Source of the DNA: an uncultured cyanobacterium
GTDB lineage: Bacteria > Cyanobacteriota > Cyanobacteriia > CAKZMO01
Direction of reading: 5' to 3'
NCBI GenBank assembly: GCA_963719515.1
Contig: CAVRCJ010000014.1
Span: 32,001 to 96,000 of the forward strand
Length of the DNA: 64,000 nucleotides
Numbering within the stretch: position 1 is the stretch's first letter; each line of letters starts with the position of its first letter. The notes beneath the pieces are model-generated. The model searched no databases. It was not told the origin of the DNA and worked only from the letters and a program-made list of their open reading frames with translations. The translations under genes were made by a program, and so were the position numbers. Below are positions 22,365 to 33,218 of this stretch, in pieces.

Positions 22365-23513
22365 ATGACAGTTCAAAAGTCCCCCTCTAAAGCGGTCCAA
22401 GCGGGCAGCCGGTTGAGCGTCTTCGAGCGCTACCTCACCCTCTGGGTCATCCTGTGCATCCTGGCGGGTGTTGTGCTGGGGAACGTTTTCCCTGGTTTGG
22501 CAGACACCCTCAACGCCATGAGCCTCTATCAGGTGTCGGTGCCCATCGCCGTCTGCCTATTCTTCATGATGTACCCCATCATGGTGAAAATTGACTTCTC
22601 TCAGGCCAAGCAGGCGGTGCGATCGCCCAAGCCCGTAGCGCTGACGCTAGCCATCAACTGGCTGGTTAAGCCCTTCACCATGGTGGCCTTTGCTCAGTTC
22701 TTTTTGGGCTGGCTGTTTCGCCCTTTGCTAGAAGGCAGCGAGCTGATTCGCGGGGTAGAAATCTCCCTGGCCAACTCCTACATCGCCGGGGCTATTTTGC
22801 TGGGTATTGCGCCCTGCACCGCCATGGTGCTCATGTGGGGCTACCTGTCCTATAGCAATCAGGGCCACACCCTGGTGATGGTGGCGATCAATTCCCTGGC
22901 CATGCTGTTTCTCTATGCGCCTTTGGGGGGCTGGCTGCTGTCGGCCAACAACCTGCTGGTGCCCTGGCGAACCATCGTGCTGTCGGTGCTAATTTACGTG
23001 GGGCTACCCCTGATCGCCGGGGTAGTGTCGCGGACCTGGATTTTGAGACACAAGGGCAAAGCCTGGTTCGACCGCGTTTTTCTCAGGTATCTCGGTCCGA
23101 TTTCCACTGCGGCCCTGCTGATTACCCTGGTGCTTCTGTTTAGCTTCAAGGCCGAGCTAATCGTCAGCAACCCCTTTCACATTGTTCTGATTGCGGTGCC
23201 TCTATTTCTGCAGACCAACTTCATCTTCTTGATCACCTACGTGGCGGCCCAGAAGCTGAAGATGGTGTACGAAGACGCCGCTCCGGCAGCGCTGATCGGG
23301 GCCAGCAATCACTTCGAGGTGGCGATCGCGACGGCGGTGACCCTGTTTGGCCTCAATTCGGGTGCGGCTTTGGCGACGGTAGTTGGGGTATTGATTGAGG
23401 TGCCGGCGATGCTGCTGCTGGTGGAAGTCTGCAAGCGAACGGCTTTTTGGTTTCCCCGAGAGCCTGAGAAGGCTACGCTACCCGACCCGCGCTGCTTGAA
23501 GGTCGATATCTAG
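22365..23513 (+). CDS. acr3: ACR3 family arsenite efflux transporter
   Basis: [43 protein letters not shown]. Confidence 0.95.
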
Positions 23514-23598
23514 CGCCTGCGCCGTTGGGCCTCTAGAGGGGAGCCCGGTTGTCTAGGGGCAGTGGGAGGCATAGCGGCCTTCACTGCCCCAGCGCCTT

Positions 23599-24168
23599 TT
23601 AGGCCTCGTCAGTCTCGTCGTTAGCAGTGGCTTCGTCAGCTGGTTCGTCTACTGCAGATGTGGCTTCCGGCTCTTCGGCCTCAGGTTCTGTCGCCTCAGG
23701 CGCTGCTTCGGGCTCCGCTTCAACAACCGCTGATTCAGCGTCAGCCGCCAGAGCCGCCACGGCATCCTCAGAAGATGAGGCAGAACCTGGAGCCTGGGGT
23801 GGTGCCGCTTGGGTGGCGGCAGCCGTCGGGGATTCTGGAGTGGGGCTAGGGGAAGCGTTAGCGGCGCTGGCTAGGGACGGAATCTTTTTGTGAATCATCA
23901 GCTGCTGAATCACGCCCGCGTCGAGGTGGGTTCTTCCTCGCGTTTTAGACGCCTCAAGAATCAGCTCGCCTAGCTCTTTTCCGGTGGCATCGGCTTGCTC
24001 GCGGGTGTGATTGCTCTGCTGCGATACTTTCTTGAGCAGGTAGTCAAGTTCTCGGTTCCCGCGACGGGTCGACACCTGGAGACCGCCCTCGGAGAGGACT
24101 TGCTTTGCGCTTACTCGCATGGTTTTGACAGCTTGACGCTGTTCGAGACCGGACTGGGAATTTGCCAT
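23599..24168 (-). CDS. Hypothetical protein with Ala/Glu-rich disordered C-terminus
   Basis: 189 aa, ATG start. Confidence 0.7.
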   Translation of the reverse strand: MANSQSGLEQRQAVKTMRVSAKQVLSEGGLQVSTRRGNRELDYLLKKVSQQSNHTREQADATGKELGELILEASKTRGRTHLDAGVIQQLMIHKKIPSLASAANASPSPTPESPTAAATQAAPPQAPGSASSSEDAVAALAADAESAVVEAEPEAAPEATEPEAEEPEATSAVDEPADEATANDETDEA

Positions 24169-24289
24169 CTGAAGTTATGCTTCCTTGTTGCTGGGGCAGT
24201 TTTGGGCCGTCTATCACTCTACAGGAATATTACGTATTCGTGGCAACGGACTCAATCCGCCTGGGGGTGTCTCTTTTCTCGCGCCATAA

Positions 24290-24607
24290 GAGGGCGACGC
24301 TGGCCTAATATCTGCTTTGATGCCGATGGCGAGCCGCTGGACGATGTCTCGCATACCGCCTGACTGGACGATTGGAATTTTATCTCCTGAGCAGAGCGCT
24401 AACAGGGTGACGGGAAATATCTTGCACTGTTTAAACCACGGCTGCCAGTCGGGCTGGCTAGTGGACCCAGGCGATCGCTCGGTGCTAATGTTCCGCCCGC
24501 AGCGGCAGCCGGAGCCGTGCGCTGGGGAGGACAAGTTAATGGTGTTAGAGAATACAAATTTAGCGCTGACGACGAGTCAGATGTTTGGCTGGCTGCAGAT
24601 GAATTGA
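24290..24607 (+). pseudogene. Uma2-family (PD-(D/E)xK) endonuclease remnant, C-terminal part
   Basis: PPDWTIGILSPEQSANRV..ILHCLNHGCQSGWLVDP; no intact N-terminus; left boundary approximate. Confidence 0.7.
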
Positions 24608-24634
24608 TACTCCTTATTTGAATGGTGATGGCTC

Positions 24635-24975
24635 ATGGTTGCAGCATCTTCAAAGTGACTCAGCCTCGAAGCGTTTCTAGCGCTGCCCGATTGCAATAAC
24701 CATGACCAGACCTGACCTATGTCTCGTTTGAGCGCCTGCCTGTAGGTTGGCTGGAGGATGAGCCTTGCCCTGTTCCCCCGGATTTGGCAATCGAAATTAT
24801 TTTCCCTAATCAGTCGTTTGGCATGATGGCGGCGAAGGCGGCAGATTATATTGCGGCGGGAGTGGCGCAGGTTTGGGTTGTGGATTCTCAGGCGAGGACG
24901 ATTACGGTGTTTATCCCGAGCGCGGTTCCGGTAACGTATCGGGGTGAGGCGGTGTTCAGCGGGGCGGGCCTGTAG
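24635..24975 (+). pseudogene. Second Uma2-family endonuclease remnant
   Basis: MVAASSK*LSLEAFLALPD, then after an apparent deletion PDLTYVSFERLP...PPDLAIEII..AGVAQVWVVD. Confidence 0.72.
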
Positions 24976-25178
24976 GTGATGTGTTGGGGTAGGAAAATTT
25001 GCCTTCAGAAAACTAAATAAGCACTGTTCTAATTTTGTCGTAAGACCACTTTGTCTCACAGGATTTGGGCCTACTTTTGGACTAAATTGAAAAGCTGTCG
25101 CAGGGCTCATCTCCTGATTGTCTCTCGGAAGATCATGAGATTTGAGTAGTTGTGGTTTTGGGGCAGCTATGCTGTGTA

Positions 25179-25265
25179 ATCCAACGGTGAAGTTGTGCGG
25201 CTACCAATAACCTTTGAATCCCAAGCAAAATCTTTCGCTAGTCCGCCCTAGCCTGATTGTTAGGT
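25179..25265. mobile_element. attC-like integron cassette recombination site
   Basis: Ends ATCCAAC (RYYYAAC) and GTTAGGT (GTTRRRY), 87 bp; inner arms GCGGCTA / TAGTCCGC with one unpaired T. Confidence 0.55.
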
Positions 25266-25383
25266 TGTGTTTCTGTTAGAGCCATTGGGAATAAGAATAG
25301 ATCTTGAACAGGCTATATCAGTACTTCAAAATCCAGGATTTGCACATGACGATTTAGCCAACACTCCGGACAGTTTTTGATGG

Positions 25384-26321
25384 CTAACGGTGGAATGCGG
25401 GTTTCAGGCCTCTTCCACGGCAGCTTGGCAACGAGAAATCGAGGGTTTCAGCGCTTGTCAGAAAAGTGTCCGGACATTGTTTAGCATAAGTAAATTGAAA
25501 GTGTGGCATAGGTACAGTTGAGTTAATACAGCAGTCACTATATTTGTTCTTGGAATCACATAGACAGAGATCTTGCTCTTCATAACCACGTTTTTTAAAG
25601 TAGGTATAATCCCTTTCAATTTGTTGAACTTCATAATTCCACCTTTGAAAAGGATTATTTAAAACTGAAGCTAGGCCTCCTACGAGAGTGTAATCATATT
25701 GATCAACTCGTTCCCCAGTTTGAGGATCTGCCGAAAACAAGACGGCAAACTTGTTTGCAGGATTTTTACAATAGCTAGATGATCATATCTGATATTTATA
25801 ATCACTCTTGCACGCATCTCACCATCGTATATTTCGCCATCATTATGACCTCATGGCTTGCGTGGATTAATCTCTTTATCACAGACGCCGCAATATTCTT
25901 TACGGATCATTCCAGAGCTTATGAATAATTTATAAGGAAATAGTTCTTGCCACTTCGCCACATGCTCTTCAATAAAATCGAATTTTCCAAGAATCCAAAA
26001 ATCTTTCCAGTAATCTGGCAGATACTTTTTCGGAGACTTAATAGACCACAAGCCCTTCTCAGTATTTTCAAGCTCACACCAAGCATCATAAAATTCACGC
26101 TTCTTGAGTAATGAAAATGCAAGAAAATAGCTGCTGTGAACAGCGACTGCCTCTTGTAAGCACCAAATATGAGCGGCTAATTCTTTCTGATGAAGTTTTA
26201 AAGCTTTTTCTTTCAGGGTTGCAAGTAATCCTATTGTTTGGCTTTCATCATATCTACACTCAGCAACCCTGGCAATGAAATTAACAATTTCCTCAAGTGA
26301 AAGATTACTACTACTCACCAA
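25384..26321 (-). pseudogene. Disrupted AT-rich gene with a Cys/His-rich segment and C-terminal SEC-C-like motif
   Basis: ORFs 25851-26321 and 25384-25740 join if TGA at 25851-25853 is read through and one A is added to the run at 25763-25767; SEC-C-like DLCLCDSKNKYSDCC. Confidence 0.7.
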
Positions 26322-26363
26322 AGCTCTCCAGGAGTCAGTTGAATATGCAAATGAAGATTTTAC

Positions 26364-27083
26364 TCAATCAAGAAGATCTGCATCTGAAATAGCTTGGCTC
26401 TTCTCAAGCCCTTCCATTCGAGGAACATTAGAAAACTCTGCCTGAGCTAAAATCTTATTCATCACTCTAGGCAGACTTTTCTCAATTTCGGTTGAAGAGC
26501 CGGAACATTGAATTTCACGAATGTATCCATTTTCATTATCAATAATGAGAGTAACACGGAACTCAGGATCCTTACTCAATCTTTCTCTATTTGCCCGGAT
26601 ATAGTCAAGAATTAAATCTTTAGCAATTGGCGCAATAATAGACGATATAACTATCGTCCCAATTACAGTAAGCGTAATTGGTTCAGAATACAAAGCTGAT
26701 GTTCGATATTCACCATCATTGACGCAGATATTTGCTTTTATTCTTTTTATTTTAGAGCTATTTAAATACTTAAAAAAGCTTTCTGCGCCAGAGGCGAATA
26801 CCTTTTCATGAAAAGAGCCTTCATTACCGTATTGATCACTTCCTAAAGGAACAAATAAGATATTTGCATCTACTATCTCTTGCCTAACATGAATAGACAA
26901 CTCTTCATTGTGCTTCCAGTAGCCCAATCCATGAGCTACATCTTCTTTCACTTTAATAGAAATGTTATCGCTATTGATACCTGCAAAGTTTTTACGCCCA
27001 GCACCAACCCGCCTGACTTGTAAACTTCGTAGGTCATATTCTGGACGTAAATCATCTTCCATCTCGGAGTTAACCTTCTTCAT
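26364..27083 (-). CDS. Chimera: about 35 aa BrnA-like antitoxin N-terminus fused to an AT-rich single-TM hypothetical protein
   Basis: MKKVNSEMEDDLRPEYDL overlaps the brnT stop; the sequence after ~26979 is unrelated and includes the hydrophobic segment ITLTVIGTIVISSIIAPIA. Confidence 0.7.
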   Translation of the reverse strand: MKKVNSEMEDDLRPEYDLRSLQVRRVGAGRKNFAGINSDNISIKVKEDVAHGLGYWKHNEELSIHVRQEIVDANILFVPLGSDQYGNEGSFHEKVFASGAESFFKYLNSSKIKRIKANICVNDGEYRTSALYSEPITLTVIGTIVISSIIAPIAKDLILDYIRANRERLSKDPEFRVTLIIDNENGYIREIQCSGSSTEIEKSLPRVMNKILAQAEFSNVPRMEGLEKSQAISDADLLD

Positions 27084-27342
27084 ATAATTTCCGCTCCTGA
27101 CGAGTTACCTCTCTTGCACTAATCAGACGAATTGAACTTACTCTCTCTGTGTATGAAGAAATTAATATACGCCCTTGATTCGATTGACCAACAATTAGAT
27201 AACGGTCTTCATCTATAGAATGGTCTGGATCATAGAAGTCGATGTAAAAAGGATCACCGAAAACAGTCTTAGCCTCGTTGAAAGAAACTTGATGTTTCAG
27301 TATGTTCTTTTTGGCTTTATCCTCATCCCACTCAAACTGCAT
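27070..27342 (-). CDS. brnT: BrnT family toxin (DUF497)
   Basis: MQFEWDEDKAKKNILKHQVSFNEAKTVFGDP...EDRYLIVG...IRLISARE. Confidence 0.92.
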   Translation of the reverse strand: MQFEWDEDKAKKNILKHQVSFNEAKTVFGDPFYIDFYDPDHSIDEDRYLIVGQSNQGRILISSYTERVSSIRLISAREVTRQERKLYEEG

Positions 27343-27456
27343 ACAGCTATTTTAACATTGGCTACCTGAGTGGATCATAGCTGAGAGATGTATCTTTTAC
27401 TACTCATTGTCGTACGGCAACCTTAGCCTTCACCAGCAGTGTGAGCAACCTAATCA

Positions 27457-27675
27457 GATATCCAACGTCATCTGACGGACAACACCCCACTTTCCGGATC
27501 TTATCAGTCATATCTGACTAATAACACTTTATTTCTCGGACTTATCCACCACGTCTGACGTCTAACTCTGGAAATCCAGGGGGTTATCCGTCACTTTTGC
27601 TTGATAATCCTGGCCTCTAGAAGACTATCTGTCACTTCTGACGGATAGCACAGCTATGTGGGGTGTTATCCGTCA
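27457..27675. repeat. Non-coding array of ~26-bp palindromic repeats (GTTATCCGTCA-N4-TGACGGATAAC) with unique 15-16-bp spacers
   Basis: Units at 27457-27483, 27500-27525, 27541-27566, 27583-27608 and 27624-27649, plus a half unit at 27665-27675; period about 41-42 bp. Confidence 0.85.
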
Positions 27676-27748
27676 ATTGCTGGGGGACGTTGAGCATAAA
27701 GAGCGGTGCAGCATAGTTGCCGGGCGCTGCAATTCATCTAGTACTGTT

Positions 27749-27994
27749 TTACCGACTTCCCCGAGGCCGCTGCAACACAGCAATCACCTCATCCGGCTTC
27801 CCCGTCGGCACCAGCCGTGACCAGCTCCCCACCTCCGCAATCCGGGCGCTGTACAGCTGAGCAATCATATTCTTCACCCAAGCTGTCGCTCCAATTAGCA
27901 TAATCTGATCCATCGGAGGCTCTAGCGCACTCGTAGGATTGAGAGTGTTAACAGCAGGTTCTTTCGCGGCATCAGACGGCAGATGTCTCGACAT
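27749..27994 (-). CDS. Small hypothetical protein divergent from an XRE regulator
   Basis: 81 aa, AGGA-poor upstream region but an ATG start; motif LIG..WV...I..L....IAEVGSWSRLVPTGKPDEVIAVL; its 3' end is duplicated at 29158-29202. Confidence 0.75.
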   Translation of the reverse strand: MSRHLPSDAAKEPAVNTLNPTSALEPPMDQIMLIGATAWVKNMIAQLYSARIAEVGSWSRLVPTGKPDEVIAVLQRPRGSR

Positions 27995-28023
27995 AGGAAG
28001 TATCCAAGATAGAAAGAAAAGTG

Positions 28024-28078
28024 ATGTTGACAGTTGGCAACACTCTCATTGTAGCTTGATGTCGCCAATCGTCAACAT
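28024..28078. promoter_or_regulatory. Two palindromic operators in the divergent promoter
   Basis: ATGTTGACAGTTGGCAACA (28024-28042) and TGTCGCCAATCGTCAACAT (28060-28078), each carrying a TTGAC -35-like element on opposite strands. Confidence 0.7.
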
Positions 28079-28113
28079 TTACTTAATTTTGGCCCTCTGA
28101 CACGATTAGAGGC

Positions 28114-28362
28114 ATGGGAAGAGCCGGAAAAGCGCTACGACAGGTGTTAGAGACTTACAGCATCAGCCAAAACCAGCTGGCTGTCACTATGGACGTTGGG
28201 CGATCGAGCATCAACCGCTGGGTTAACGAAAGCCGCGACCCTGCCGCCGAAGCCGTCGCCGATATCGTTCACGCGCTAGAGAAAATCGATCGCTCAGCCG
28301 CCGAAGATTTTCTTACTCTCTACCTCGACCGTAATACAGACGGAGAATCTCTAGATGGCTAG
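28114..28362 (+). CDS. XRE-family HTH regulator (copy 1)
   Basis: ALRQVLETYSISQNQLAVTMDVGRSSINRWVNESRDP. Confidence 0.9.
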   Translation: MGRAGKALRQVLETYSISQNQLAVTMDVGRSSINRWVNESRDPAAEAVADIVHALEKIDRSAAEDFLTLYLDRNTDGESLDG

Positions 28363-28491
28363 GATTTTCGTTAGAACTACAGCGATCGCCATAATTCTGA
28401 TGCATAAACACACCTGCGCAAAACGCTTGCGGGGTATTTGGGCATCGGCTGATTTATAGTCGCAAACGGATCGCGCCACAAAAGCGAATTC

Positions 28492-28740
28492 TCAAGCAAG
28501 AGCTGTTTCAATATCATCACTCGAAGCCACAGGCTGCGCCCTGAGCAGCTTATGGTGCCCAGGGCGCAGCCCCAATGATTCGTAAGTTCGCCCGCTCCTA
28601 TCGCTAAACTCGATCTCAAACGCCGAGCCCCCTGCCAAAGCTTCAACGACTGTACCCACCTGCCCCCGCCGCAGATTGTACTGTGGGAGTTCAGTCACTA
28701 GGGCAACAACATCAAGCAGTTTAATCGCGTCTTGTGACAT
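28492..28740 (-). CDS. DUF4926-like protein (putative antitoxin/immunity)
   Basis: IKLLDVVALVTELPQYNLRRGQVGTVVE..AFEIEFSD..GRTY. Confidence 0.8.
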   Translation of the reverse strand: MSQDAIKLLDVVALVTELPQYNLRRGQVGTVVEALAGGSAFEIEFSDRSGRTYESLGLRPGHHKLLRAQPVASSDDIETALA

Positions 28741-28758
28741 TCTTCCTCTCCTCAAAAG

Positions 28759-29103
28759 TTATAGGGGATAGCAAGTTGTTAGTCTCGGAACAGTAGACCC
28801 ATGCTCAATGATCCAACCGCTGCGGACGGGCACACTTCTATTCTGCCATTGGAGTACAAAGTCTACAGTGCATCGCTGGCCAAAAGAATCACAGCGCCCA
28901 GCTTGAGCCTCATGCGTCCTGATCATTTGGAAGAGAATTCGGCGCAGCTCCTCAGCATCGGCAGCCGTCAGGCCCAACATTGAGGCAAACAACCTCGCTT
29001 TGTGCTTGTCCTCACGATGCTCCAGATTTAGACGATAGTCGCGGAGCTTGCGAATATCGATCGCTGCATTCTCAACGTAAGGCAGTAGCGTTGTCGAGTC
29101 CAC
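28759..29103 (-). CDS. DUF6883-like protein (putative toxin)
   Basis: AAIDIRKLRDYRLNLEH...KHKARLF..LG...GWII....PRLTTCY. Confidence 0.8.
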   Translation of the reverse strand: MDSTTLLPYVENAAIDIRKLRDYRLNLEHREDKHKARLFASMLGLTAADAEELRRILFQMIRTHEAQAGRCDSFGQRCTVDFVLQWQNRSVPVRSGWIIEHGSTVPRLTTCYPL

Positions 29104-29157
29104 GGGCTAAAGCACATTCGGCATATCCGCCAAAGAATGCCCAGTTTCGCGATCGCC

Positions 29158-29202
29158 CTACCGACTTCCCCAAGGCCGCTGCAGCACAGCAATTACCTCA
29201 CC
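29158..29202 (-). pseudogene. 3' remnant of a second copy of the small gene at 27749-27994
   Basis: 38/41 nt identical to 27751-27791; encodes GEVIAVLQRPWGSR*. Confidence 0.8.
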
Positions 29203-29215
29203 TATATTGAACGGC

Positions 29216-29464
29216 ATGGGAAAAGCCGGAAAAGCCTTAAAGAAGGTTCTCGAAACCTATAGCATCAGCCAAAACCGCCTAGCCGTTACCATGGGCATTA
29301 GCCGCATCACCGTCAACCAGTGGTTCAACGAAACCCGAGATCCCCTCGCTGAATCTATTCCCGACATCGTCCCTGCCCTCGAAGCCTTAGACGCCGAAGC
29401 GGCCAAAGACTTCATCGCTTTCTACCTGAACCGCAACGCAGACGGAGACCCCTTAGATAGCTAG
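29216..29464 (+). CDS. XRE-family HTH regulator (copy 2)
   Basis: MGKAGKALKKVLETYSISQNRLAVTMGISRITVNQWFNETRDP; paralog of 28114-28362. Confidence 0.9.
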   Translation: MGKAGKALKKVLETYSISQNRLAVTMGISRITVNQWFNETRDPLAESIPDIVPALEALDAEAAKDFIAFYLNRNADGDPLDS

Positions 29465-29551
29465 ATTTCCATCAGCGATCGCGGCAATGCTGAGACGCAA
29501 ATACACCTGTAGGGAACTCTTACAGAGTGCTAGAGCGCCAGCTGACAAAAC

Positions 29552-29890
29552 ATGGTTCAACCCTGCGGGTTTACGTTTCCTTCAGCAAAAGCCGAATACC
29601 TCCTAACCTACGCCTCTGAGCCAGGTCGGGGTGGAGATAAACAGAACTTCTGGCGACGAGTCCTCGGGTTTACCTCCGCTTCCAATATTCGAAAGGCCAT
29701 CCTAGCACTAGTCTCTGCCGATATATTGGTATTGATGAGGAGAGGTGCTTATGGCGATCGCTACGAGGCTTCAATCCAAATCACAGGCCCAAGCGGAAAC
29801 ACTCGCCAGGTGCGTACAGTTTGGATAGTCTTAAACGGAGAGAACACGGCTCGATTTGTAACAGCATTTCCGGCTCGCAGGCAGAAGTAA
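29552..29890 (+). CDS. DUF6883-like protein (second)
   Basis: AKAEYLL...GGDKQNFWRRVLGF...YGDRYE...GPSG...VRTVWIV....ARFVTAFP. Confidence 0.75.
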   Translation: MVQPCGFTFPSAKAEYLLTYASEPGRGGDKQNFWRRVLGFTSASNIRKAILALVSADILVLMRRGAYGDRYEASIQITGPSGNTRQVRTVWIVLNGENTARFVTAFPARRQK

Positions 29891-29892
29891 CC

Positions 29893-30351
29893 ATGACCTT
29901 CAAGCTATTTGATACAGTCCAGCTCCTAGAAGACATTTCCTTAGACAACGACGCCACCGCCCCCGCCGGTACTCTAGGTTCCGTGGTAGACGTCCTCAAC
30001 CAGGGCGAAGCGTACCTAGTAGAATGCCTCGGTGGCTGGGTAAAATCCAATGCCGACGGAGATCTTGCTTCATCCGAACAGGAAGATCCCGAAGCCTTCA
30101 GGGAGACACTTGGCGTTGAAACACTCTATCCCAATCAGATCCAGCTTATGACGCCTGCTGAGGAGAGCGTAGGTGTCCGAGCACAATTGTTGCTGCTGAT
30201 TGAAGACATGCCCGATGTGCTCCTAAAAGAGGTCAAAGACTTTGCTGAGTTTATTCAGCAAAAGTCGACGCCGCTCAGGCCACATCAACAACCGCTCACT
30301 GATGACTCAACGTCGCTTACAGAATCAAAAAAGCGATCGCCCTCCCTCTAA
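29893..30351 (+). CDS. DUF4926-like domain fused to a DUF2281-like helical domain
   Basis: FKLFDTVQLLEDI...PAGTLGSVVDV...AYLVE; C-terminal IEDMPDVLLKEVKDFAEFIQQK. Confidence 0.75.
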   Translation: MTFKLFDTVQLLEDISLDNDATAPAGTLGSVVDVLNQGEAYLVECLGGWVKSNADGDLASSEQEDPEAFRETLGVETLYPNQIQLMTPAEESVGVRAQLLLLIEDMPDVLLKEVKDFAEFIQQKSTPLRPHQQPLTDDSTSLTESKKRSPSL

Positions 30352-30518
30352 AAGACAACCTGCCGCACATTGGCCCAACAGTGCGTAATGCTCAACTATG
30401 ACTGCCGCTCATACACCTGATGACTGCAGGTTTTTGATCAGTTCTAACTGCAGCGATATTGTGAGGTTACTGGCAAAGACAGCCAGACATTCAAAGACTC
30501 TCACCGGTAGGTATCCCC

Positions 30519-30788
30519 ATGCAGACCATCCAACAACGCCTTCAGCACAACACATTTGAACTCATCGTCCCCCGGCCGTCACTAGGCGATCGCGTCTGTT
30601 CTGCACTCCATACCCTGAAGGAATTTACCCTTAATCTGGCGACCTCAACGCGAGAGCCCCAGATTAAGGTATCCCAGAATCGCGTCGGTCAATCTCAGTG
30701 GACTGTTTATGACCCCACTAACGGTTACAGAAACACCTTCGCATCTGAAGATGCGGTGCAGGCTTGGATCGAGAATCGGTATCGTTAA
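30519..30788 (+). CDS. Small cyanobacterial-type hypothetical protein
   Basis: EPQI...GQSQWTVYDPTNG....FASEDAVQAWIENRYR. Confidence 0.75.
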   Translation: MQTIQQRLQHNTFELIVPRPSLGDRVCSALHTLKEFTLNLATSTREPQIKVSQNRVGQSQWTVYDPTNGYRNTFASEDAVQAWIENRYR

Positions 30789-30896
30789 GCATGCCGCGTT
30801 TTTGCACAGAGCAGGTAAGGCGATCGCCAGCAGCCTACACTACCGGCGATCGCCCTAACTATCACATTGGCGGGAATGACGTTACGCCAACCGGGA

Positions 30897-33218
30897 TTAA
30901 CAGATCGACATCACCTTCTCGCGCTCGGTCGGCACGTCGTAGCGGTCAAGCATCATCACCTTGTGCCAAGCCGCGACAAAATCCTTGACCATCCGCTCTT
31001 GGCCATCATTTGCGCCGTAGACTTCAGCGACCTGACGCAGCTCCGCGTTTGAGCCGAAGATGAGGTCACAGCGAGTGGCCGTGAACTTCGTTTCGCCCGT
31101 CTTGCGATCATCGATATTGAACATCATCTCGTGCTCGTCAGCCGGCTTCCACTCGTAGTCCATGCTCGTCAGGACGCGGAAGAAGTCGTTAGTCAAGACA
31201 CCCGGGCGATCGGTAAAGATGCCGTGCTTCGAATGGTCCCAATTCTGGTCGAGGGCGCGCATGCCGCCGACGAGGGCCGTCCATTCAGGCGCAGTCAGCG
31301 TCAGCAGCTGGGCGCGATCGAGGAAGATGCGTTCTGGCTGCACTCGGTAGCCGACGGCGTCATTGTGGTAGTTGCGGAAACCATCTGAGACCGGCTTCAG
31401 CCACTCGAAGCTCTCAACATCGGTCAGCTCCTGCGTCGTATCCATCCGCCCTGGGGTGAACGGAACAGTGACCTCAACCCCAGCGTCTCGCGCCGCCTTC
31501 TCCACAGCAGCGCCGCCGCCCAAGACAATTAGGTCCGCCATCGAAACCTTCTTGTTGCCCGACTGAGCGCCGTTGAAGTTCGCCTGAACACCCTTCAGCG
31601 TGGATAGAACCTGACTCAGCTCCTGCGGGCGGTTCACTTCCCAGTCCTTCTGCGGATCGAGGCCAACCCGCGCCCCGTTTGCGCCGCCGCGCTTGTCAGA
31701 GTCGCGGTAGTTTGACGCCGAGGCCCAAGCGGCAGATACGAGGGCGGAAACGGAAAGGCCGCTCGACAGAATCTCGTTCTTGAGCGATGCGATATCGCCG
31801 TCGTTGATCACCTCGTGGTCCAGCGCCGGAATCGGATCCTGCCAGGGCAGATCTTCCGCCGCCACTTCTGGGCCAAGATAGCGACTCTTCGGGCCAAGAT
31901 CTCGGTGAGTCAGCTTATACCAGGCTTTCGAAAACGTGTCGCTGAAGTAGCTAAAGTCGTTGAGGAAGCGCTGGCAGACCTCGCGGTAGGCCGGGTCTTC
32001 CTTCAGCGCAATGTCCGAGGTCATCATCATCAGCGCATGCTCGACCCCGGGTCGGTGAGCATCCGGCGTTTTGGGTGCCGCCGGATCAATCGGCGTCCAC
32101 TGAATAGCATCGGTTGGGCTCTTGGTCTTTTGCCAATCGTACTTAAACAGATTTTCCAGGTAGCTGTTGTCCCACTGGGTCGGGTCCGGAGTCCAGGAGC
32201 CTTCGATGCCGTTGGTCATCGTGTATTCAGCGAAGCCGGTACCCTCAGGGTTCTGCCATCCCAGGCCCATCGCCTGAATCGGCGCGCCTTCCGGGGCAGG
32301 GCCGATCTTGTCCGCAGCGACCATGCCGTGGCTCTTGCCAAAGGCGTGCCCACCGGCAATCAGGGCGACGGTCTCCTCATCCCCCATGGCCATGCGCGCA
32401 AAGGTCTCGCGGATGTCGCGGGCGGAGGCAATGGGGTCGCCGTCGCCGTTTGGACCTTCCGGATCGACGTAGATTAGCGACTGGTGAGATGCCCCTAGCG
32501 GGTTCTCCAGGTCGTAATATTCATCACTCGGCTCGCCCGCCCAGCGAATCGTGCGGGTGACCATCTGATTGGGATGACCTTCTTTCTGCTCGCCGCCTTC
32601 GCTAAACGCTTTGCCGTCCCAGAACTCAGGGCCCCAGTAGGTGGCGCGGTCCGCCTCCCAAGCGTCGATGCGGCCACCGCCATAGCCGAAGGTCTTCAGG
32701 CCCATAATCTCCAGCGAGCAGTTGCCCACTAAGATCATCAGATCGGCCCAGCTCAGCGACGCGCCGTATTTTTGCTTAATGGGCCACAGCAGCCGCCGGG
32801 ACTTGTCGGTGTTGCCGTTGTCCCACCAAGAGTTGATGGGGGCGAAGCGCTGCATGCCTTTACCGGCGCCGCCGCGACCGTCCGCAATCCGGTAGGTTCC
32901 TGACGCGTGCCACGCCATGCGGACCATCTGAGGGCCGTAGTTGCCGTAGTCAGCGGGCCACCATTCCTTCGAATCGGTCAGCAGCGCTTTAATGTCGCTC
33001 TTCAGCTGTTGGAAGTCGAGCGTTTGGAACGCCTCTTGGTAATCAAAATCGCCCAGCGGGCTGGCCAAAGGTGAGTTTTGGTGAAGCAGCTCGACCTGAA
33101 GCCGGTTCGGCCACCAGTCATCAGCTTGTGGCTTGGAGCCGAGGGCCCCACCCACCCGGGTGCCCCGAAAGGGACATTGTGCAGGCGTATCGGAGGGGGT
33201 GTTGTTCATCAAGTTCAT
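30897..33218 (-). CDS. katG: Catalase-peroxidase
   Basis: [49 protein letters not shown]. Confidence 0.97.

Follow-up and report, generated by a model that had tools for sequence, protein, structure and literature searches.

The closest described counterpart of the locus reported here is attI1, in which a simple site is accompanied by accessory IntI1-binding repeats, DR1 and DR2, that favour the attI1 x attC reaction and have been proposed to act as enhancers or as topological filters (PMC3146285, PMC8946536, PMC8191803). Both repeats are core-like, reading GTTACGC and GTTATA(G)G (PMC3146285), and most attI sites are presented as devoid of accessory repeats, which are thought to be rare (PMC8191803). 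Integrons of cyanobacteria are already known (PMC4889954; 10.1101/2022.02.06.479319); in the first of these sources, Cury et al. (2016) list cyanobacteria among the integron hosts, and attI sites outside the known classes were not part of the search.

The array described here lies in a 64,000-nucleotide stretch of DNA from an uncultured cyanobacterium (the window), where a first-pass annotation had pointed to 26-bp palindromes with short unique spacers between 27457 and 27675. The six unit strings that it listed are all present at the places given, with inter-unit gaps of 16, 15, 16, 15 and 15 bp, although the first unit starts at 27460 rather than 27457 and is 24 bp long, lacking 2 bp at its centre relative to four other copies in the genome. 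The array exceeds chance: within six mismatches of the consensus there are 30 26-mers in the 5.28-Mb genome, of which 16 have a neighbour 41 or 42 bp away, and a single mononucleotide shuffle of the genome gave 13, none with such a neighbour. An inverted match of 17 in 18 positions between 27473-27490 and 27658-27675 is real, and arises because each arm plus its flank is the reverse complement of the others. The palindrome in the central spacer is perfect, but it is peculiar to the window copy among the five. Every one of the six reading frames is interrupted across the array, by two to six stops, and on account of these stops, together with a period in relatives that is not a multiple of three, we rejected an open reading frame of 14-residue repeats. 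Tandem Repeats Finder did not include the window array in its output, and the window was searched for tRNA and tmRNA integration sites without a match. One DNA run covers 27212-27577 without any difference, though it may be the source sample and is then not independent; a single RNA run gave no cover over the array, which carries no information about expression. The features of the locus are collected in Table 1.

Table 1. Coordinates of the attI platform, its array and the neighbouring features in the window
Feature	Position	Strand	Basis or remark
attC, in the orientation expected for cassettes at this attI	25179..25265	-	42.8 bits, E 4e-8, full length
Putative cassette region, read away from attI	25179..27453	-	position, strand, attC
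SEC-C ORF	25384-25740	-	
156-aa ORF	25851-26321	-	
239-aa ORF	26364-27083	-	overlaps brnT
BrnT toxin gene	27070-27342	-	
attI R box and crossover point	27448..27454	-	crossover between 27454 and 27453; homology of the five copies ends here
Central spacer of the attI simple site, 5 bp	27455..27459	.	copy comparison; commonest short gap between facing boxes in relatives
Unit 1, 24 bp, left arm = attI L box	27460..27483	.	five-copy alignment; consensus of relatives
Unit 2, 26-bp palindrome, two box-like arms	27500..27525	.	
Unit 3	27541..27566	.	
Unit 4	27583..27608	.	
Unit 5	27624..27649	.	
Last half-site, eleventh arm	27665..27675	+	
Expected beginning of intI, without intI remnant	27676..27748	+	first ~60 bp in common with the C11 copy
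81-aa gene	27749-27994	-	ends 74 bp from the array

A weight matrix search of the genome gave four further five-unit arrays, two on contig C1 and one each on C11 and C18, and a single unit on C13, so that five full copies are present when that of the window is counted. When the five are aligned, homology ends sharply on the left at CTAAC, with the attI crossover triplet, past which the DNA is unrelated; read on the minus strand, this edge consists of a 7-bp box, five bases and the GTT crossover. The four sisters show AAC on the plus strand at the crossover, then 5 bp and a box, and the window copy keeps this geometry without the crossover G, its R box reading ATTAGGT on the minus strand with the invariant G of GTT altered. 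At the opposite end, three of the sisters have the intI start codon no more than about 15 bp past the last half-site, with remnants of the gene: at C18, TIGR02249 matches over positions 2-39 and tblastn with a related IntI recovers residues 3-48 and 306-325, while the first C1 copy retains residues 3-25 and 23-47 and the second a weak match to residues 4-27 (E 0.11). No intI remnant was found at the window or C11 copies, which share a stretch of 69 bp at 75% identity made up of the half-site and the first ~60 bp after it. Adjacency to intI is therefore not seen at the window copy itself, and is a property of the array family, through the remnants in three sisters and the intact genes in relatives. 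Among the five copies, 42 of 63 columns are invariant in the boxes and 19 of 47 in the unconstrained gap positions (Fisher p 0.007, a value overstated by the relatedness of the copies), and the 4-bp unit centres are also conserved, at 85% pairwise. The array is almost certainly the interval between attI and intI of an integron, and the window copy is a decayed relic, with intI deleted, the crossover G lost and 2 bp missing, in a genome in which, window included, no full-length intI was found. DNA similarity to the array is confined to the same genus (four of 16 other genomes of the family), and blastn against plasmid and phage collections gave no match.

An internally deleted mini-intI is present at G000:C18:28932-29134 (L007), with residues 1-48 fused to 306-325, and L032 (G002) is a mini-intI with a similar internal deletion and both ends kept. 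Also, the octamer GCGATCGC, which we take to be the cyanobacterial HIP1 element, occurs at or near the break of intI homology in both C1 copies, and in the C11 copy it is found where the last half-site ends (L001 ~7300, L002 ~7470, L003 ~7190), and may have mediated truncation of the platforms.

The DNA on the other side of the crossover has the character of a cassette region. Its G+C content is 35-45%, compared with about 58-62% in the flanks, and from position, strand and attC we infer that the genes between attC and the crossover are cassettes. Most attC sites escaped a simple hairpin finder, which detected a MITE instead, and we used in its place a covariance model built from 18 hairpin sites on the cassette side of intI, all from other genomes. 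This gave a single match in the 64-kb window, on the strand opposite to that of intI, and ten matches in the genome at E<=0.1, eight of which lie within about 7 kb of the five arrays on the cassette side and on the expected strand; two belong to the C11 locus and three to the second C1 locus. The inner attC sites of the 2.3-kb cassette region would then have decayed or been missed, and the window locus, with one attC match from an 18-site model that may miss decayed sites, falls short of the two sites by which a CALIN is defined. Elsewhere in the genome, an attC at C13:43863-43949 lies 3 kb from the lone C13 unit (G000:C13:46985) and on its wrong side, and a strong attC at G000:C4:91761-91846 is isolated, with no array; both are probably pieces of rearranged integrons. 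Within the window, 25359-25479 is occupied by an element of ~124 bp with terminal inverted repeats and 11 other copies in the genome at 80-98% identity, which resembles a MITE insertion into the terminal part of the SEC-C ORF and is absent from a contig of another run, where 25354 is joined to 25482. The 239-aa ORF has no Pfam match at cut-off; its start resembles a short antitoxin, and it continues as unrelated low-G+C sequence. A contig of another run, 93% alike, spans 26141-27399.

To see how widely such arrays accompany integrases, we drew intI loci from three sources: relatives (16 of 41 genomes over the family cut-off and 16 of 301 in the phylum sample), GTDB contigs (the best 80 of 563) and IMG/VR (the best 80 of 282). 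Loci were kept only if the match reached the IntI N-terminus, and 23 with less than 200 bp upstream were dropped along with exact duplicates. A period of 39-42 bp in the 330 bp upstream of intI (p<=0.01, 200 shuffles) was found at 56 of the 76 loci from photosynthetic cyanobacteria, and at none of six loci from the non-photosynthetic part of the phylum, 3/24 from Chloroflexota, 0/8 from other bacteria and 2/64 from IMG/VR. The loci are not independent, several coming from one genome or genus; cyanobacterial IntI served as the seed of the search, row L027 is a distant recombinase, and the groups were assigned from handles and record titles. The period was not significant at the remaining 20 cyanobacterial loci, including one clade of five intI genes (L012, L018, L053, L056, L106), and the array is thus not required by every cyanobacterial IntI. 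A matrix-chain test gave 55/76 for cyanobacteria, 0/6, 3/24, 1/8 and 0/64 for the same groups in turn, but it is circular for cyanobacteria and overlooks arrays of the window type (L032, L062, L097, L102, L115), so that our main figure is the autocorrelation count. Some Chloroflexota intI genes and one from a Syntrophobacteraceae have shorter palindromes of two to three units beside attI (L088, L101, L139, L142, L144, L148, L149). The architecture of the array may be older than the cyanobacteria.

In a quick IntI tree, assessed by SH-aLRT only and without bootstrap, integrases with window-type arrays, in which 26-bp units run up to the start codon, form a clade of their own (SH-aLRT 98; L008, L017, L024, L097, L102, L115), and the main clade comprises 60 rows (SH-aLRT 95). 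No array was detectable at L017, a member of the small window-type clade. Genome G009 holds arrays of both types (L029, L058).

The geometry of the arrays is uniform in these relatives. A half-site matrix trained on the 56 period-positive loci has the consensus R-T-T-A-K-R-C-N-G-A-(A), and the half-site takes the form of about GGG-NN-RTTAKRC followed by a lineage-specific extension of 4-5 bp. At these loci 149 palindromes are 25 bp (89 cases) or 26 bp (60) long, the 137 gaps between them measure 14 bp (17), 15 bp (76) or 16 bp (44), and the 267 same-strand periods fall at 39 (25), 40 (90), 41 (105) and 42 bp (47). The facing boxes at attI are 5 bp apart in 23 cases, 4 bp in six and 6 bp in two, so that facing arms within the array, at 14-16 bp, are separated by one helical turn more than the 5 bp at attI. 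Chains have 4-6 units in 40 of 61 loci (range 2-8) and span 150-330 bp. The first arm is the attI L box itself (30 loci), and its consensus equals that of 212 inner arms; the first 7 bp of this shared consensus match the core site that is brought in by cassettes. As with DR1 and DR2, core-like 7-bp boxes thus stand between the simple site and intI, in this instance as RTTAKRC, the L box. The array is anchored at a fixed distance from attI and not from the start codon, although automatic calling placed the chain start 4-6 bp from AAC in only 33/61 loci, the rest being mis-started or poorly scored window-type arrays. For most of the called arrays, the distance left to the intI start is about 115 bp or less.

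These comparisons place the array in the interval between attI and intI, starting in the L box, repeating its consensus in phase and conserved. The first-pass annotation had suggested, as separate possibilities, phased protein-binding sites at intervals of some four helical turns and, where the cargo region ends, sites like a recombinase core; both came close, being two views of an attI with accessory repeats. The locus is best read as the platform of a sedentary chromosomal integron, in which the attI simple site is followed towards intI by a chain of L-box half-sites in alternating orientation. Judged by their sequence and placement, these probably constitute 8-16 accessory binding sites for IntI, an expanded form of DR1 and DR2. 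IntI protomers would load on the arms at a pitch of about 20.7 bp; the inner facing arms, being one helical turn further apart than those of the simple site, lie on the same face of the DNA, and are probably too distant to hold a cleaving dimer. As enlarged DR1/DR2 the arms could keep integrase beside attI and shape a synapse that favours insertion by attI x attC, and in the lineage of the window, in which the array reaches the start codon of intI, repression of that gene could be a further role.

Binders other than IntI have to be considered. Dyad units at a spacing of four turns are typical of cooperative dimeric binders, and the array might, while still being the attI-intI interval, consist of 25-26-bp operators for a dimeric host protein or one encoded in trans, with a role in the synapse or in control of the cassette and integrase promoters. 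The array accompanies two separate IntI clades in cyanobacteria and is rare outside the phylum, occurring weakly with the IntI of neighbouring Chloroflexota (3/24), a distribution that would suit a host factor as well, and the unit centres are conserved together with CCC...GGG at positions 3-5 from each end of the gaps (186 spacers in relatives), features that IntI boxes alone do not explain and that, for the gaps, make them part of the site. Host factors are also suspected for chromosomal integrons (PMC8191803). Against such operators, the chain opens with the attI L box, whose consensus recurs in the inner arms, arm sequence differs between the two integrons of G009, and there is no room for a gene between the array and intI. 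That window-type arms go with an IntI clade of their own is neutral here, since covariation is expected from linkage whoever binds. We consider operators of this kind unlikely, if deserving of attention, and binding by IntI the better account of the arms.

The spacers had been described as unique, which does not hold: in comparisons across the five copies, similarity is 68% for spacers that share a position (50 pairs) and 44% for spacers at different positions (200 pairs), so they have been inherited and not acquired. The units themselves are 63% alike between positions, which, with spacers so similar, is not the pattern of a CRISPR array. This tells against the suggestion of a processed small-RNA or CRISPR-like array, as does the absence of any excess of pairing within units: over 44 loci, arm complementarity is 6.96 of 11 within a unit and 7.18 between units (p 0.11), and 7.14 across a gap (p 0.70). 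An apparent excess across gaps (7.16 against 6.61, p 2e-4) disappeared once degenerate end arms were left out (7.14 against 7.18). The lack of pairing excess argues for arms that act as independent double-stranded sites. A role as folded single-stranded DNA or RNA, whether as ~41-nt small RNAs, CRISPR- or TIGR-like guides or attC-like hairpins, is highly improbable in our judgement. The region does fold better than shuffled sequence (z -5.3 as DNA, -5.8 as RNA), but this is expected of any run of inverted repeats; a cas1 fragment lies on another contig of the genome, and yet no cas or Nop-domain partner was found at the arrays, nor any Nop-domain gene (PF01798) in the genome by a search whose control matched in four archaea and which a distant Tas could escape. 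Spacer length is fixed as well as spacer identity by position, an Rfam scan of 23000-31000 in the window returned nothing at E<=1 and no CRISPR family, and the attC model did not match the array.

Transcription control provides a further reading of the array as the attI-intI interval, either by autorepression of IntI or through the cassette promoter Pc, with little part in recombination. In the lineage of the window the array fills the whole space from attI to the intI start codon, so that both promoters must overlap it, and in each of the five copies the array persists although intI is dead or missing. However, a search inside the array for sigma-70-like sites found none, hexamers of the -10 type are not over-represented in the last arm (8/44, compared with 28/172 other right arms), the distance that is fixed is that to attI rather than to the start codon, and in the main clade a LexA-like box stands apart from the array, on its downstream side; taken as the principal function, such control seems to us improbable. 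The LexA-like box, scored on a motif that we take to be that of LexA, matches at 10-11 of 11 positions between the array and the intI start in 14 of 36 main-clade loci (L050, L051, L061, L067 and L081 among them), where 0.7 would be expected. Being separate from the array, the box implies that the array is not the SOS operator in the main clade. It suggests an SOS control of cyanobacterial intI that the proteobacterial motif would miss; in an earlier study, LexA control of intI in cyanobacteria was not detectable with that motif (PMC3108266).

A functional connection of the array with the neighbouring 81-aa and XRE genes had also been envisaged, and is not supported by comparison within the genome. 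Pfam gave no match for the 81-aa protein, which falls in an uncharacterised cyanobacterial family automatically named 'putative peptide ABC transporter substrate-binding protein', of which about 76 members are spread through this genome without arrays; none of the other XRE copies (3-4) lies at another array. We give next to no credence to the array as operators or as the transcript tail of an 81-aa/XRE module, even though the 81-aa gene ends so close to it and, at four of the five copies, a member of the family is found no more than about 800 bp away towards intI: in cyanobacteria at large the family lies within 800 bp downstream of intI at just 14 of 69 loci, four of them convergent at 72-94 bp (the single non-cyanobacterial match in the tally, L069, is a duplicate of L032), as against arrays at 56/76, and the XRE gene has an inverted repeat of its own. 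Most likely the 81-aa gene was brought beside the array by the deletion of intI, its orientation being the same as in the convergent loci. The repeat in question, 19 bp long (84%) at 28024-28042 and 28060-28078, lies between the divergent 81-aa and XRE genes, overlaps a promoter-like site and is a probable XRE operator. A second, deleted module at 29159-29464, flanked by DUF6883/DUF4926 gene pairs, has 42 bp of the 3' end of the 81-aa gene (93%) joined almost directly to a second XRE gene.

Cyanobacterial cells are commonly polyploid, with multiple chromosome copies. We offer, tentatively and as more doubtful than not, the proposal that the array represents a phylum-wide attI architecture, in which 8-16 IntI protomers, in phase with the helix and seated on pseudo-simple sites that are longer by exactly one turn, would form a wrapped platform that selects attI x attC and blocks attI x attI between platforms and between chromosome copies, and that in one clade would serve as an intI repressor in place of LexA.

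What is new here is an expanded, phased attI platform that is typical of the cyanobacterial integrons examined, of which the window contains a dead copy. The literature searched, in which subscription journals are little covered, contained no description of a phased palindrome array at attI, nor the phrases 'cyanobacterial integron(s)' or 'integrons in cyanobacteria'; attI sequences in Figure 4 of PMC3146285 and Supplementary Figure S4 of PMC8191803 may bear on this novelty. Beyond a few classes little is known of attI sites, and standard tools do not look for them (PMC4889954). An array of about ten extra boxes provides a sequence signature for attI, and for dead platforms, across the cyanobacteria. 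The arrays also form a natural series, with two to eight units, two integrase clades and a clade without arrays, in which the enhancer and topological-filter models of DR1/DR2 can be tested. The window copy matters solely as an example of a decayed platform.

Among known systems, CRISPR and TIGR (TIGR-Tas) arrays are composed of tandem palindromic units with shorter variable stretches between them. The present arrays share the tandem palindromic units with these, but their spacers correspond position by position between loci, with partial conservation, and each array is tied to an attI. Phased extra sites also impose the topology of the synapse at Xer cer/psi, resolvase res and the lambda att arms, through host proteins or a separate arm-binding domain. 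Here, by contrast, the accessory arms equal the consensus of the core L box and the integrases are ordinary IntI proteins of 321-343 aa. The locus resembles sedentary chromosomal integrons and CALINs, as described in PMC4889954, in having chromosomal cassettes with attC and a toxin-antitoxin toxin gene and no integrase nearby; it differs in that the platform, attI and array together, is kept in five copies without a full-length intI and that one attC was detected here. As in attI1, there are two inverted 7-bp boxes and a GTT crossover, situated 5' of a divergent intI, with core-like repeats towards intI (PMC3146285, PMC8946536, PMC4792948). Whereas attI1 is a site of about 65 bp with two direct repeats, the platform described here carries about ten extra arms, in alternating orientation and with a strict period of 39-42 bp.
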